Below, piece by piece: positions 56,868 to 62,013 of a DNA stretch of 64,000 nucleotides (position 1 is its first letter; every line of letters starts with the position of its first letter). The notes under the pieces were generated by a model, which did not search any database, was not told the origin of the DNA, and worked only from the letters and a program-made list of their open reading frames with translations. The translations under genes were made by a program, and so were the position numbers. The stretch comes from Brevibacterium luteolum (GTDB lineage Bacteria; Actinomycetota; Actinomycetes; Actinomycetales; Brevibacteriaceae), in the NCBI RefSeq assembly GCF_013004595.1, contig NZ_JABEMC010000007.1:1-64000 (forward strand), given 5' to 3'.

Positions 56868-57761
56868 TTACTTCACGCGGGGGATCGGCAGCTTGGTGCC
56901 GGCTGCGGCGCGCTCATCGAGGACGCTGCGGCGGAACCGGACGAGTTTGGCGGGCCTGCCACCGGTGCTGGAGGCGACCTGACCGGAGTCCTCGACGAGC
57001 TGCTGCTGGGCCACGAGCCGGCGGAAGTTCTGCGTGTGCAGCTCCTGGCCGGCGATCGCCTCGACAGCAGTCTGCAGACCGGAGAGCGTGAAGGTCTTCG
57101 GGAGGAGTTCGAAGATGACCGGCTGATATTGGATCTTCGAACGCAGCCGGGCGATCCCGCTGGCGAGGATCCGCCGGTGATGCGGAGCCATCGGCCGGCC
57201 CGGCACAGGATCTTCGGCGCCGGCTTCGGGGACGAGCCCGGCCTCGTACAGCAGCTCATAGCGCGCTAATGCCATGTCCGGATGCCACGGCCGGCCGGCC
57301 AGCCCGAAGGCCGCCTCACAGCGCACCCGGCGACCCTCTCCGGCATCCCCGTCAGTCGTCTCCTCGGCCCAACGTCCGAGAGCCGGCGCGATGATCTCGT
57401 CGACGACCACAGTGCCGTCCCTGCGGTCCTCCCAGGGGAAGAACTCGTACCAGCTGCGCCACGCCTCGGCGCCGGGCTCCATCGTCGTCAGCCCGAGATA
57501 GGAGACTTCGAGGGCGGGACCGGAGCCGCGGTTGCGGTCGGCGAAGGTGTAGAGCTGCTCGATGTAGCCGAGCTCGCAGCCAGTCTGGCTCAGCACCCAC
57601 GCTCGCATGCCCTCCTGCATTGAGCGGTGGCTGCGCTGCAGTGGACCGGCCGGCAGCGTGGTGCCGCCGCCGGTGGTGAGGACGAAGGGGACGCCGTCGC
57701 GCACGGCGGTGATGACGGCGACGAGGTTGCCGCTGACGAGGTAGGACTGGCCTGCGCTCAT
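56868..57761 (-). CDS. nadQ: NAD-responsive Nudix-like/wHTH regulator (NadQ/NrtR-like)
   Basis: [59 protein letters not shown]. Confidence 0.8.
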
Positions 57762-57810
57762 CGTCTCGACTCCCTCTCTGCATGCGGCAGGCGTTCAGGG
57801 CTCCCGGGGT

Positions 57811-58593
57811 CTAACGTGGCACGTCCTCGTTGGGCTGCTCTTCCGGAGCCTCATTGTGCATGCTATCTGAGTGAAGGGGATCGTCGAGATTCCGAGGTGG
57901 CCGGGTCACGCATGATTGGACACCATCGACGTGCTCGTAGAGGCTTTCGGATACTTGCGCCCACATGGGGTCGAGGACGAAATCGATACCTTCGCGACGA
58001 GCGTGCTTTGCTGCAGGAACGAAATCGCTGTCTCCGGAGATCATGATGATCTGATTGACATCTCGTCTTTGAGCCAACGAAGCGATGTCCAAACCGATGC
58101 GCATGTCGACACCCTTTTGTGTGATATCCAAGCCGAAGTCAGTCTCGGCGAGTTCGGAGACGGTAATCTTTTCACTGCACAGGCGTTTTAGGGCTTCGTG
58201 CTTCAAATGGTAGCCGTGTTGGGTTTCGAGCTCCTCACCGCGGCGAAGAGCTACTTTGCGCTTTCGGACGATTGCGGCGAGGAAGTCGGTCATCCATTCG
58301 TATTTGGGAGTCTTGCGCAGATTTACGTTGGTGCGCGTTAAGGGGTGAAAGAGCACTTTGTCCGACGGCGGGCAGTCGTAGTAGAAAATGCGGTATAGGT
58401 GGCTTTGGGATCGTAGTACATGACGAAAGCAGTAAGTGACGAGCTCTTGAGCACGTTGATCCGGTTCCTTGTCGCCAAACAACCGACGTGCGCGCCGCCG
58501 GTAGAAACCACCGTCAACGAGGATCGCTGTGACAATCTCTCGAACGGGAGCTGAAGCAGGCGGCGCGGCCTTTTTCTCTTCGTTGACGCTCAT
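57811..58593 (-). CDS. NYN-domain (LabA/DUF88, PIN-fold) putative ribonuclease, low GC
   Basis: AILVDGGF, YRIFYYDCPP, QKGVDMRIGLDI, ISGDSDFVPAAKHARREG, with the acidic catalytic residues intact. Many A/T-ending codons, unlike the neighbours. Confidence 0.9.
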   Translation of the reverse strand: MSVNEEKKAAPPASAPVREIVTAILVDGGFYRRRARRLFGDKEPDQRAQELVTYCFRHVLRSQSHLYRIFYYDCPPSDKVLFHPLTRTNVNLRKTPKYEWMTDFLAAIVRKRKVALRRGEELETQHGYHLKHEALKRLCSEKITVSELAETDFGLDITQKGVDMRIGLDIASLAQRRDVNQIIMISGDSDFVPAAKHARREGIDFVLDPMWAQVSESLYEHVDGVQSCVTRPPRNLDDPLHSDSMHNEAPEEQPNEDVPR

Positions 58594-58618
58594 GTACAAC
58601 CACCTGGTGGAGAATAGT

Positions 58619-58676
58619 AAAAGCTTCTGTCATCGACAACGCTCCCTATCAGCGGAGGGTCAACGGCAGAAGCTGT
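58619..58676 (-). ncRNA. Candidate structured leader/antitoxin RNA upstream of the NYN gene
   Basis: Minus strand reads AGCTTCTG-C-CGTTGAC-c-CTCC gctgatag GGAG-cgtt-GTCGATG-A-CAGAAGCT-TTT. This is a long stem with two G:U pairs, an apical hairpin and a U-run. Confidence 0.55.
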
Positions 58677-58683
58677 TGACGCT

Positions 58684-58712
58684 AATGTAGCAGTTGCAAC
58701 CCGGGATGACAA
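58684..58712 (-). promoter_or_regulatory. Sigma-A-type promoter driving the hairpin and NYN gene
   Basis: TTGTCA-N17-TACATT with an extended TGn -10 on the minus strand. Confidence 0.7.
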
Positions 58713-58734
58713 TGTTCAAACCCAACCTCGTGGA

Positions 58735-60258
58735 TCAGAACAGCGCGGCGGCCTTGATGACCGTCTGCACGAGTCCGTAGAGCAGGCCGGCGCACACGAC
58801 ACCGGCGAGAACCACGGCGATGGTGGCGTGGAAGCCGCCGTTCTGCGCGTTCTCATCGCGCCTGTGCGCACGCGTCTCTTCAGCTGCCACGGCGCCCGGA
58901 CCCGGTCGGCCCTGCGCAGCGGCGACGACCTCCTCGGACTCATGGTGCTTGGCATCAACCGGGCGGACGAGCGCGTTGGCGATGAAGCCGATGGCCAGCA
59001 CGCCGACCATGATGTACAGCGAGAGGCTGTAGAGGTCCTGGCCGGATTTGCCAGCCGCGGCCTGCGACTCGACGACGAGGTTGACGATGAGCGGGCCGGC
59101 CACGCCGGCAGCCGCCCAGGCGGTCAGCAGGCGGCCGTGGATCGCACCGACCTGGTACACGCCGAACAGGTCGCGCAGGTAGGCCGGGATGGTGGCGAAG
59201 CCGCCGCCGTAGAACGACAGGATGATGAGGGTGGCGATGAGGAACAGGAACAGCGATCCGCCGCCGACGACGGCCACCGCGAGGTACAGCAGCAGCCCGA
59301 GGCCGAGGTAGACGATGTAGATGTTCTTGCGCCCGATGTAGTCCGACAGGCTCGACCACACGAAGCGGCCGGCCATGTTCGTCAGCGAGAGCATGCCGAC
59401 GAATCCGGCGGCTGCGGCCGCGGTGATCTGCGGGAAGTAGTCCTGGATCATCGGCGCGGCGTTCTCCAGGATGCCGATGCCGGCGGTGACGTTGGTGAAC
59501 AGCACGATCCACAGCATCCAGAACTGCGGGGTCTTGATCGCCGAGTTCGCCGAGACGTTCTTCGTCGTCTGCAGCGGCTTCTCCTTCACCGTCGTCGGGT
59601 CCCAGCCGGCCGGCTTCCAGTCCGGGTGCGGCACGCGGATGCAGTAGGCGCCGCCGGTGATGACGAGCGCGTAGACGATCGCCAGGGTGATGAACGTGGG
59701 GATGATGCCGTTGACGAGCTGCTCGGGATCGGGCCCGCCGCCGAAGTGAGTCATGAGTGCGTTCGAGGCCGGACTGGCGATGAGCGCACCGCCGCCGAAG
59801 CCCATGATCGCCAGGCCGGTCGCCAGGCCCGGACGGTCGGGGAACCATTTGATGAGCGTCGAGACCGGGGAGATGTAGCCGATGCCCAGGCCGATGCCGC
59901 CGATGAATCCGTAGCCGAGGTAGACGAGCCACAGCTGTCCGGTCGAGATCCCGAAGGTCGCGACGATGAAGCCGCTGACCCAGCACAGTCCGGCCAGCGC
60001 CATCGACTTGCGCGGCCCGGCCTTCTCCACCCAGGTGCCGCCGAAGGCGGCGGAGAGCCCGAGCATGAGGATCGCGAGCGAGAAGATCCAGCCGACGGCC
60101 ACCTCGCGCACGGCGAAGTGGTCCATGAGCGGAGCTTTGAAGACGGAGAAGGCGTACACCTGGCCGATGCACAGGTGGATGGCCAGGGCCGCGGCGGGAA
60201 TGAGCCACCGATTGAACTTGGGAGAAGCGACGATGGCTTCGCGGTCGAGAACACCCAC
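58735..60258 (-). CDS. OFA-family MFS transporter (oxalate/formate antiporter-like) with an extra C-terminal TM segment
   Basis: HLCIGQVYAFSVF, GYISPVSTLIKWFPDRPGLATG, YGGGFATIPAYL, IHGRLLTAW. Confidence 0.92.
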   Translation of the reverse strand: MGVLDREAIVASPKFNRWLIPAAALAIHLCIGQVYAFSVFKAPLMDHFAVREVAVGWIFSLAILMLGLSAAFGGTWVEKAGPRKSMALAGLCWVSGFIVATFGISTGQLWLVYLGYGFIGGIGLGIGYISPVSTLIKWFPDRPGLATGLAIMGFGGGALIASPASNALMTHFGGGPDPEQLVNGIIPTFITLAIVYALVITGGAYCIRVPHPDWKPAGWDPTTVKEKPLQTTKNVSANSAIKTPQFWMLWIVLFTNVTAGIGILENAAPMIQDYFPQITAAAAAGFVGMLSLTNMAGRFVWSSLSDYIGRKNIYIVYLGLGLLLYLAVAVVGGGSLFLFLIATLIILSFYGGGFATIPAYLRDLFGVYQVGAIHGRLLTAWAAAGVAGPLIVNLVVESQAAAGKSGQDLYSLSLYIMVGVLAIGFIANALVRPVDAKHHESEEVVAAAQGRPGPGAVAAEETRAHRRDENAQNGGFHATIAVVLAGVVCAGLLYGLVQTVIKAAALF

Positions 60259-60455: not shown

Positions 60456-61286
60456 TCAGTTCTCGATGGCGCGCAGCCGCACTCCCGCCGGGTAGGCGTC
60501 CAAGGCGTCGGGCAGCCCGGCGCGCCGGCCGGACATGTAGGTTGCCAGCACCCGCCCGGTTTCGGTGGCTTCCGGCGCCGAGGCGTCGGTCACCGGGGCG
60601 AGCCCGAGGCGATTGAGGGTCTGGCGGGCGACGGCGTGGGGGGAGTCGAACAGGGCGCTGGTGCCCGGCCGCTGCTGCAGGATCCGGTCGGCGACGAGCC
60701 CGAAGTGCGTGCAGCCGAGCACGATCCCCGAGGCGGCCGGGGGAGTGGCGGCCACGGCGGCGGCGATCGCTTCGTCGATGCGGGCCTCATCGGCGGCATC
60801 GATGGCGTCGGCTAAGCCGTAGCAGGGCACCTGGTGGACGGTGGCATCGGAGGCGAATTCGGCGATGAGCCCCTCCTGATAAGCCGAGCGGGTCGTCGCT
60901 CGTGTCGCCCAGACGGCGAAGTCCTCCCCGGTGGCAGCGGCGGATTTGATCGCCGGCACAGTGCCGATGATCGGGGTGCCGGGCTCGTAGACTTCGCGCA
61001 ACCGCTCCAGGGCGTGGACGGAGGCGGTGTTGCAGGCGACGACGATCGCATCGGGCTGCCAGGGGCTGAGCGCATTGGCCGACTGCAGTGCCCGCTCAGC
61101 CACCACCTCGGGGTCGAGTGACCCGTAGGGCATCCAGTCCGGGTCCATTGCGAGCACAAGGTCGGCGGCCGGGCACTGGTGGTGAAGTGCGTCGGCGTAG
61201 CTGACGAGCCCGAGCCCGGAATCGATGATCCCGATGACCGGGCGGGCGCGCGTTCCGGGACTGGGTGTCATGTCAGGCCTTTCCAT
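60456..61286 (-). CDS. murI: Glutamate racemase family protein
   Basis: DSGLG, MPYG, VACNTAS, LGCTHF. Start uncertain (61286 or 61271). Confidence 0.85.
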   Translation of the reverse strand: MERPDMTPSPGTRARPVIGIIDSGLGLVSYADALHHQCPAADLVLAMDPDWMPYGSLDPEVVAERALQSANALSPWQPDAIVVACNTASVHALERLREVYEPGTPIIGTVPAIKSAAATGEDFAVWATRATTRSAYQEGLIAEFASDATVHQVPCYGLADAIDAADEARIDEAIAAAVAATPPAASGIVLGCTHFGLVADRILQQRPGTSALFDSPHAVARQTLNRLGLAPVTDASAPEATETGRVLATYMSGRRAGLPDALDAYPAGVRLRAIEN

Positions 61287-62013
61287 GGTAGGTCGTGCCG
61301 ATGCCGGCGGGGAAGTCGTTGGTGACCGCGGCGTTGTCGCCGGCGAGGCTGTCGGTGCTCGTCAGGCCGGGTGCCGGCACCTGGACGGCCGCAAGCTCGC
61401 CGGTCGGCTCTGTGGTCAGGAGTGTGCGGCGTGCTGGAGCCGGCACCGCGCGGCGGTAGGTGAAGTTGCGGATGAGGGAGAAGTGGTCTTCGCTCAGCCC
61501 CTGGGAGAACTCGGGGGCGATCATGAGCAGCCGTGAACCGTACTTCTGCTCGAAGTGCGCTCGGGTCTCAGGGGCGGTGAGATCGTCGTCGATCCAGATC
61601 GCGCGGCCCTCCTCGTGCGCGGCGAACCACTCCTCGACGGCGCGGGCTTTCCACCATTCGTGCGGGTCGTTGGCGAACCGGTTGTAGGTGTCATCGGGCA
61701 TCGGGATGACCTCGAAGCTGGAGCGGAATCCGAGCTTCGGCTCGATCTCGGTGCGGCAGCGCTGCGACCACGTCGACAGCCACACGATGTCGACGAGCCG
61801 GCGGCGGGTGAGCCGGTCGAGGAAGCGCACGACCCGCGGCCGGAAGTGCAGTTCGTAATGCCAGGCGCGGACCTTCCGGCGGCGTTCGCGCAGGAACCGC
61901 AGTCCAGTGACGGGGTAGGAATTCAGCACTCCGTCGACGTCGAGGAACAGGGTGACATGACGGGCGGCACGGCGCGCTGAAGCGCCGGTGTCTCGCAGGT
62001 CTTCGGACGTCAC
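61273..62013 (-). CDS. HAD-superfamily protein ('Swiss Army Knife RNA repair-like' type)
   Basis: LFLDVDGVLN, VWLSTW, WWK, IWIDDD; GAGGAGGG RBS. Confidence 0.8.
   Translation of the reverse strand: MTSEDLRDTGASARRAARHVTLFLDVDGVLNSYPVTGLRFLRERRRKVRAWHYELHFRPRVVRFLDRLTRRRLVDIVWLSTWSQRCRTEIEPKLGFRSSFEVIPMPDDTYNRFANDPHEWWKARAVEEWFAAHEEGRAIWIDDDLTAPETRAHFEQKYGSRLLMIAPEFSQGLSEDHFSLIRNFTYRRAVPAPARRTLLTTEPTGELAAVQVPAPGLTSTDSLAGDNAAVTNDFPAGIGTTYHGKA

Follow-up and report, generated by a model that had tools for sequence, protein, structure and literature searches.

A mobile promoter–hairpin–nuclease cassette in Brevibacterium luteolum suggests a type III-like RNA-antitoxin system built on a NYN nuclease

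Results

The NYN cassette fills a variable slot in the B. luteolum genome

The window analyzed here is a stretch of 64,000 nucleotides from Brevibacterium luteolum (assembly GCF_013004595.1, contig NZ_JABEMC010000007.1, positions 1 to 64,000, forward strand). On its minus strand, a sigma-70-type promoter, a hairpin with a U-rich tail, and a ribosome-binding site precede the gene of a predicted endoribonuclease of the NYN/LabA-like type (Table 1). The first-pass annotation described a stand-alone, low-GC NYN gene with acidic motifs and no adjacent protein antitoxin, and all of this holds: the GC content is 0.547 in the cassette vs. 0.679 in the window, the residues D27, D163, D188, and D190 are all present, and by Pfam the flanking genes encode an MFS transporter and an NrtR regulator. 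The genes after the NrtR-type regulator are nadA-like, as judged from the translation. Elsewhere in the window, positions 61273-62013 encode a HAD domain of the Swiss-army-knife RNA-repair type (PF18143) that adjoins a racemase gene.

Comparison of 69 genomes of the genus revealed that both flanks are matched in the three closest relatives while 57787-58733 is unmatched. Two close relatives carry unrelated sequence of 202 bp and 627 bp in the slot, and the third has no cassette match; the slot holds different DNA in each of them, in one case with an apparent flavodoxin-like ORF by eye. NYN-gene-like DNA is located elsewhere in 4 of the 68 other genomes of the genus. Because the close relatives keep the flanks but lack the cassette, the promoter and the hairpin came in with the gene, and the promoter, hairpin, U-tract, and NYN gene are one mobile cassette.

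The ORF spans 57811-58599 (-), with a likely ATG start 6 nt past the AGGTGG motif. The previously noted promoter was recovered as the sole match in 4 kb, where 0.4 is expected by chance, and transcription is predicted to start near 58678 (-). The stem-loop is likewise as described before, with an apical CUCC/GGAG stem, UUUU (58622-58619), and a distance of 25 nt to the ATG. It folds with -26.2 kcal/mol (z=-4.95; 0/200 shuffles are as stable), and its opposite strand with -22.9 kcal/mol (z=-3.8). A terminator scan did not call this hairpin because its stem is long and interrupted. The Teg147-like RNA is present as a single copy in the B. luteolum genome.

Table 1 Features of the NYN cassette and its flanks in the window.
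Feature	Coordinates	Strand	Basis
NrtR-type regulator (flank outside the module)	56868..57761	-	Pfam
Variable slot with nrtR on one side and the MFS gene on the other, occupied here by the entire promoter-RNA-NYN cassette	57787..58733	.	genus comparison
NYN/LabA-like (PIN-fold) predicted endoribonuclease, 260 aa, PHROG 5783	57811..58593	-	Pfam, fold, PHROG
Ribosome-binding site AGGTGG, outside the main hairpin	58600..58605	-	sequence
U-rich tail; together with the hairpin, a candidate intrinsic terminator	58614..58622	-	5 U in 8 nt past the stem
Predicted ~60-nt Teg147-like RNA, ends inferred	58616..58678	-	fold and family model
Hairpin, 53 nt	58622..58674	-	folding, covariation
Outer stem P1	58674-58667 with 58629-58622	-	
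Conserved internal element (actinobacterial variant; AGUA/GAA at this position in many other members)	58666-58659 with 58637-58630	-	
Inner stem	58657-58654 with 58645-58642	-	
Apical loop, family-invariant AU at 58649-58648	58646..58653	-	alignment
Sigma-70-type promoter: -35 TTGTCA (58712-58707), 17 nt, -10 TACATT (58689-58684)	58684..58712	-	sequence scan
Lactate/oxalate-type MFS transporter (flank outside the module)	58735..60258	-	Pfam

The protein is a predicted NYN nuclease with a family-specific insertion

The protein matches Pfam NYN (PF01936; E=4e-9, above the curated cut-off) and no other Pfam family, as well as PHROG 5783, whose function is unknown. Its AlphaFold model (pLDDT 91) resembles VPA0982 (2qip; Z 16.1, rmsd 3.0 over 158 residues) and the NYN domain of MARF1 (5yaa; Z 15.4, rmsd 2.8 over 146 residues). 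Searching the PDB by sequence returned no relative, and no RNA-bound NYN was among the matches listed in the fold searches. Among 88 aligned rows, the acidic residues are conserved in 81 (D27), 87 (D163), 87 (D188), and 87 (D190), and with all four catalytic Asp present the nuclease is catalytically intact as judged by its residues. An insertion of ~80 residues (about residues 76-158) is specific to the family; it contains conserved Arg, Asp, and Pro and is not covered by the solved NYN domains. The family comprises 970 clusters at 50% identity (E up to 1e-10). In PADLOC 2.0 (2023 library), no model matched well, the best hit being a generic NYN profile (E 1.7e-7), and 29 of the 88 members match such a profile weakly. 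According to excerpts of PMC5499597, none of the bacterial NYN.COG1432 proteins had shown nuclease activity as of 2017, and where RNA-binding partners of NYN domains are known, these are protein domains fused to them, OST-HTH being an example.

The hairpin accompanies the NYN family

The first-pass annotation proposed homologues as the place to look for a conserved, covarying upstream hairpin, and this bore out in genomic, viral, and metagenomic loci alike. A genome scan found 588 relatives, the best 80 of which were used as genomic loci; the hairpin profile was seeded from 57 of them, leaving 23 unseeded. The hairpin lies upstream in 75 of the 80 (the 57 seeds and 18 of the other 23). Of the five misses, four have at most 112 nt of DNA upstream, and L017 is a fragment that lacks the start codon. 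The covariance model R2, trained on the genomic loci, matches 78 of 80 viral loci, which were kept from 370, lay outside the training set, and are partly redundant with many near-duplicates. One of the two misses is cut by a contig end and the other has a diverged hairpin by eye. Metagenomic loci, again with many near-duplicates, gave 71 profile matches out of 80, the nine misses being three loci at contig edges and six with hairpins diverged by eye. R2 did not match any of six distant NYN loci.

Sampling of another phylum gave a similar picture. Among 300 genomes drawn at random, 14 were new homologue-bearing ones, and the hairpin was found in 10 of these (8 at E up to 0.004, 2 weaker); the remaining four are three proteobacterial homologues with different long hairpins and one truncated fragment. 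Nine annotated phage and plasmid records with 37-52% protein identity yielded six matches at E up to 0.008 and two weak ones, and the ninth record type, the Campylobacter pTet-type plasmids, has a different long hairpin. Intact NYN genes lacking an upstream hairpin were not seen among the loci with full upstream DNA; the two loci that have such DNA and no hairpin (L017 and L286) are start-less gene fragments. The hairpin occurs as one copy per locus with no tandem repeats. Run over 151 genomes of the phylum with 32 candidates scored per genome, the RNA model retrieved B. luteolum and four short terminators. An actinobacterial pattern scan gave 103 matches, mostly by chance: two were real among the 80 scored with R2, and one of the other 23 has a NYN gene.

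Covariation and conserved architecture of the hairpin

The pairing of the stems is strongly supported by covariation. In a plain MAFFT alignment, double changes occur in 15/15 pairs, and 85.8% of the paired cells can pair vs. 65.2% in shuffles, even with the actinobacterial rows shifted by one column in the middle stem. Across 57 disjoint nearest-protein pairs, the outer stem underwent 85 double compensatory changes, and pairing is preserved in 96 of the 104 changes on the 5' side (null expectation 0.40). The covariation fits nested stems, and the fitted structure has no pseudoknot. The loop AU is invariant in 76/76 aligned rows and is found in the central loop region of 115/115 distinct cores, whose length is 48-52 nt. 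As the stems vary while the loop AU and the length are fixed, more is conserved than the function of a terminator requires. Many members have an internal loop AGUA/GAA that would be of the sarcin-ricin (bulged-G) type (AGUA in 54/115 cores); the B. luteolum copy lacks this signature, and the variant there could pair instead. In L299 (2887-2975), L280, L284, and L285, branched hairpins take the place of the inner stem.

An RNA structure had been preferred to a DNA operator on the grounds of strand-specific G:U pairs. This preference stands on the outer stem, where G-U outnumbers A-C by 35 to 3, and not on folding energy, which has no strand bias over the 115 members (50 fold better as sense and 61 as antisense). 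For 89 of 114 members, a similar promoter was located no more than 70 nt from the stem, as compared with 7.6% of control positions; at least 5 U fall within 8 nt of the tail in 90 of 114, and the start codon is mostly 15-35 nt past the stem. Transcription is predicted to start mostly 4-9 nt ahead of the stem in GC-rich hosts; in AT-rich hosts, another 20-40 nt are mostly present, usually with a small 5' hairpin.

The staphylococcal branch corresponds to Teg147

An Rfam scan of 20 loci at gathering level returned nothing at the hairpin, and a scan at E-value level revealed a link to TEG147 (RF03535), whose consensus shares the hairpin architecture. The RF03535 model, with a gathering threshold of 56.1 bits, scores intermediate family members 29-36 bits, below the cut-off, and does not match the B. 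luteolum copy; R2 scores the TEG147 loci 46-54 bits. By motif scan, three viral contigs exceed the TEG147 cut-off. In L365 the TEG147 copy (80.9 bits) stands directly before an intact NYN gene (E 9e-96) and behind the small terminase gene terS. The similarity of L364 to L365 stops about 10 codons into the NYN gene, and L363 has the same sequence as L364 in the stretch compared and no NYN match. At two of the three TEG147 loci, what is left of the gene is the RBS and about 10 codons. L363 and L364 are equated with the NCTC8325 locus by their Rfam score. On sequence grounds, the staphylococcal branch of the hairpin family is Rfam TEG147: it has the same 60-nt size and architecture, and the Rfam model is narrow and misses the B. 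luteolum copy.

Teg147 is listed as a bona fide 56-60-nt sRNA of S. aureus by RNA-seq, without a validation entry and with no Northern or RACE entry in the sRNA table (excerpts of PMC5826253). It lies on a genomic island (excerpts of PMC3053349), the creation of its Rfam family is recorded in excerpts of PMC7779021, and JAR3D identifies its internal loop as a strong sarcin-ricin match (excerpts of PMC13085918). The passages drawn from these four papers give neither a function nor a NYN link for Teg147, and Rfam classes TEG147 as cis-regulatory. The ~60-nt transcript anticipated by the first-pass annotation is thus on record for this family member, while the ends of the B. luteolum RNA are predicted. 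The first-pass annotation also knew of no description of the pairing of NYN and RNA; we found no description of a NYN protein with an RNA antitoxin or with Teg147 in the literature, where coverage of subscription journals was limited and an earlier description is possible, but the RNA itself is partly catalogued as RF03535.

Genomic context and RNA-only copies

The module recurs in phage accessory positions. In the E. coli phage ev099 its position is between cI and N, and the DNA that follows it resembles the rexB end of other strains; we take this position to be the rexAB slot of lambda. In Javan85 it lies between the repressor and the integrase. Integrase or recombinase genes come next downstream at 27 of 34 distinct viral loci and at 14 of the 65 genomic loci scanned, and no second gene is conserved beside the NYN family in the genomic and viral neighborhoods. 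This context, read from sequence, favors a role in defence.

When the RNA alone was searched for, a NYN gene followed in 16 of 18 matches (mostly one prophage) and in 9 of 17. Of ten RNA-only loci checked, most keep the promoter and four keep the RBS and start codon by eye; tblastx detected no NYN remnant at any of the ten. RNA-only copies neighbor ToxN and Abi_2 genes in L502 and L510 and stand ahead of other genes in L509 and L447, and in L502 and L438 the promoter and hairpin are kept and no co-oriented gene follows them. The RNA also stands next to a truncated NYN gene in an E. coli chromosome. The decay is asymmetric: RNA without the gene is common, and an intact gene without the hairpin was not seen. 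The RNA-only copy in L438 (1184-1254), on a 93-kb viral contig, sits behind the gene for the ribonucleotide reductase small subunit and is a candidate decoy; in L509 (1187-1583), the gene after the RNA copy is a phage gene whose product is RNA polymerase alpha-CTD-like.

Comparison with known systems

In VapBC type II systems, the PIN-superfamily RNase VapC is held by a protein antitoxin. The NYN family shares a PIN-superfamily RNase as the presumed toxin but has no conserved second gene. With the type III systems ToxIN/AbiQ, CptIN, and TenpIN (excerpts of PMC12283969), the module shares the mobile and phage location and the gene order, with a predicted terminator before the endoribonuclease gene. 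It differs from them in two respects: ToxIN, CptIN, and TenpIN have tandem repeats before a separate terminator, whereas the NYN module has neither and carries a single hairpin; and their toxins belong to the ToxN/CptN/TenpN family, whereas Pfam NYN alone and the NYN fold were found here. Their antitoxin folds as an H-type pseudoknot; the structure fitted to the NYN hairpin contains none, its covariation agreeing with nested stems. The AbiF/Abi_2 system with its RNA (RCd22, RF03085; excerpts of PMC12373285) has in common the promoter, the short RNA, the terminator, and read-through into the nuclease gene, is also found in a prophage, and uses RNA hairpins rather than a pseudoknot. Its protein, however, is Abi_2, which is linked to Cas13, and its RNA has two motif copies with a separate terminator where the NYN module has one fused hairpin and a PIN-fold NYN protein; RF03085 was not matched in the Rfam scans of the window and the homologue loci. 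Relative to NYN.COG1432/LabA-like proteins such as VPA0982 and MARF1 NYN (excerpts of PMC5499597), the fold and the acidic active site are shared, while the clade described here stands out by its large insertion, its accessory and often phage-borne occurrence, and its dedicated RNA. The type III- or AbiF-like layout originally proposed is kept as regards the promoter, the predicted terminator, and the nuclease gene, and needs amending in that a single hairpin without repeats serves as both the conserved RNA and the predicted terminator. On this comparison the module belongs neither to the known type III families nor to AbiF, although it would work in a similar way.

Discussion

A possible RNA-held nuclease

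By analogy, the cassette is best read as a two-part mobile module, a type III-like RNA-antitoxin system on a NYN nuclease in which terminator and antitoxin would be fused in one hairpin; we give this reading a probability of about 0.6. Most transcripts would stop at the hairpin and yield an abundant ~60-nt RNA (60-90 nt where the extra 5' hairpin is present), and read-through past it would supply a little nuclease. The RNA may bind the nuclease via the invariant AU loop and the internal loop and keep it inactive. Phage infection or loss of the element would halt the RNA supply, and the freed nuclease may then cut cellular or phage RNA, resulting in abortive infection or addiction. The conserved linkage, the covariation, the Teg147 transcript, the asymmetric decay, the phage context, the RNA-only copies next to ToxN and Abi_2 genes, and the repeat layout of the sister clade (see below) speak for this reading. 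Points against it are the missing tandem repeats, the B. luteolum copy without AGUA, the weak and generic PADLOC matches, the report that no bacterial NYN.COG1432 protein had shown activity as of 2017, the two RNA-only copies ahead of other genes, and the different hairpins of three proteobacterial homologues and of the Campylobacter one.

The main rival reading is that the hairpin might be an attenuator acting only in cis, where the nuclease or another factor recognizes the leader, cuts it or alters termination, and so limits its own expression without inhibition in trans. This would account for its strict placement in cis, for the conservation of the loops, and for the U-tail, it agrees with the Rfam typing of TEG147, and the AbiF RNA also acts in cis (excerpts of PMC12373285). 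RNA-only copies could be deletion scars, several retaining the RBS and start codon, and asymmetric decay is equally expected of any promoter-leader unit. We nevertheless consider an attenuator rather unlikely: the short leader in GC-rich hosts leaves no room for an anti-terminator, P1 forms with a probability of 0.92-1.0 with or without the read-through sequence, the RBS is outside the stem, and some RNA-only copies (L502, L438) have no co-oriented gene to regulate behind them. The RNA may also be a cofactor or sensor in a ribonucleoprotein, activating or guiding the nuclease or being displaced by a phage protein, rather than a simple labile inhibitor. A sarcin-ricin-type loop is a protein-docking motif, and the insertion with its conserved residues extends beyond the solved NYN domains, both of which suit such a role. 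There is, however, no spacer-like variable single strand, antisense pairing of the RNA to its own mRNA start is at chance level (121/200 shuffles as good), and the asymmetric decay fits an inhibitor better than a cofactor, so that we regard this role as improbable.

Two further readings treat the hairpin as a terminator. It could be part of a portable promoter-terminator insulator whose sole effect is to limit expression of a mildly toxic accessory gene, as the frequent U-tail, the weak model matches to ordinary terminators, and the two copies ahead of other genes would allow; we hold this to be less probable still, since a terminator requires neither an invariant AU in its loop, a fixed length, and an internal loop conserved in several phyla nor a near-exclusive linkage to one protein family. 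The first-pass annotation had left room for the hairpin being the terminator of the upstream MFS gene, with which it is co-oriented at about 60 nt behind the stop codon. This origin is refuted and may be practically dismissed, because close relatives with the same MFS gene lack the hairpin, the cassette being missing from the slot in the three closest ones, and because among homologues the upstream gene runs opposite to the hairpin at 24 of 68 genomic and 8 of 38 viral loci. The hairpin may stop MFS read-through incidentally.

A bolder form of the RNA-antitoxin reading appears doubtful to us. It would posit a new and widespread class of defence in which RNA antitoxins hold a PIN-fold nuclease, with one hairpin as terminator and antitoxin, a sarcin-ricin-like loop mimicking an rRNA-type target, RNA-only copies in phages and S. 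aureus (Teg147) kept as trans-acting decoys that disarm the nucleases of rival elements, and a tandem-repeat sister clade (see below) that arrived at the classical type III layout by independent convergence.

The RNA-inhibited toxins in the cited literature are ToxN/CptN/TenpN and Abi_2 proteins (excerpts of PMC12283969 and PMC12373285). If the RNA-antitoxin reading is true, an RNA-held PIN/NYN nuclease would be a further fold among them, and bacterial LabA-like NYN proteins may gain their first defined RNA partner. The orphan S. aureus sRNA Teg147 is assigned a probable partner, and PHROG 5783, a phage family of unknown function, a testable role. The protein has 260 aa, the RNA has 60 nt, and an E. 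coli phage carries a version of the module, which makes it directly testable.

Related NYN clades and neighboring RNAs

A sister, more distant NYN clade (L340, L384-L392) has a promoter, two tandem covarying repeats, a strong separate terminator-like hairpin, and then the gene. It was sampled at 9 viral loci with 5 distinct upstream regions, the repeats lying about 130 nt upstream of the gene, and the repeat region has no Rfam match. A third NYN subfamily, on a C. helveticus plasmid (L271, 1661-2450), has its own long hairpin and U-tract upstream and is convergent with an orphan copy of the Campylobacter cpp15 hairpin on this plasmid. Within the parts of the Campylobacter dRNA-seq tables drawn on (PMC3656092, Table S12 and part of Table S5), no sRNA or start site is recorded at cpp15. 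The C. jejuni pVir RNA CJpv3 was considered as a family member for its similar-looking promoter and rejected, as it is a different RNA, antisense to the end of a PemK/MazF gene. This abundant sRNA (L270, 1044-1120) runs antisense toward the 3' end of the toxin gene, and its sequence arrangement makes an RNA antitoxin for PemK/MazF possible. FuFi-1, DUF3800-I, and c4-2 RNAs were also found near homologue loci, in L049 (1412-1573), L046 (4305-4422), and L391 (1736-1806), respectively.
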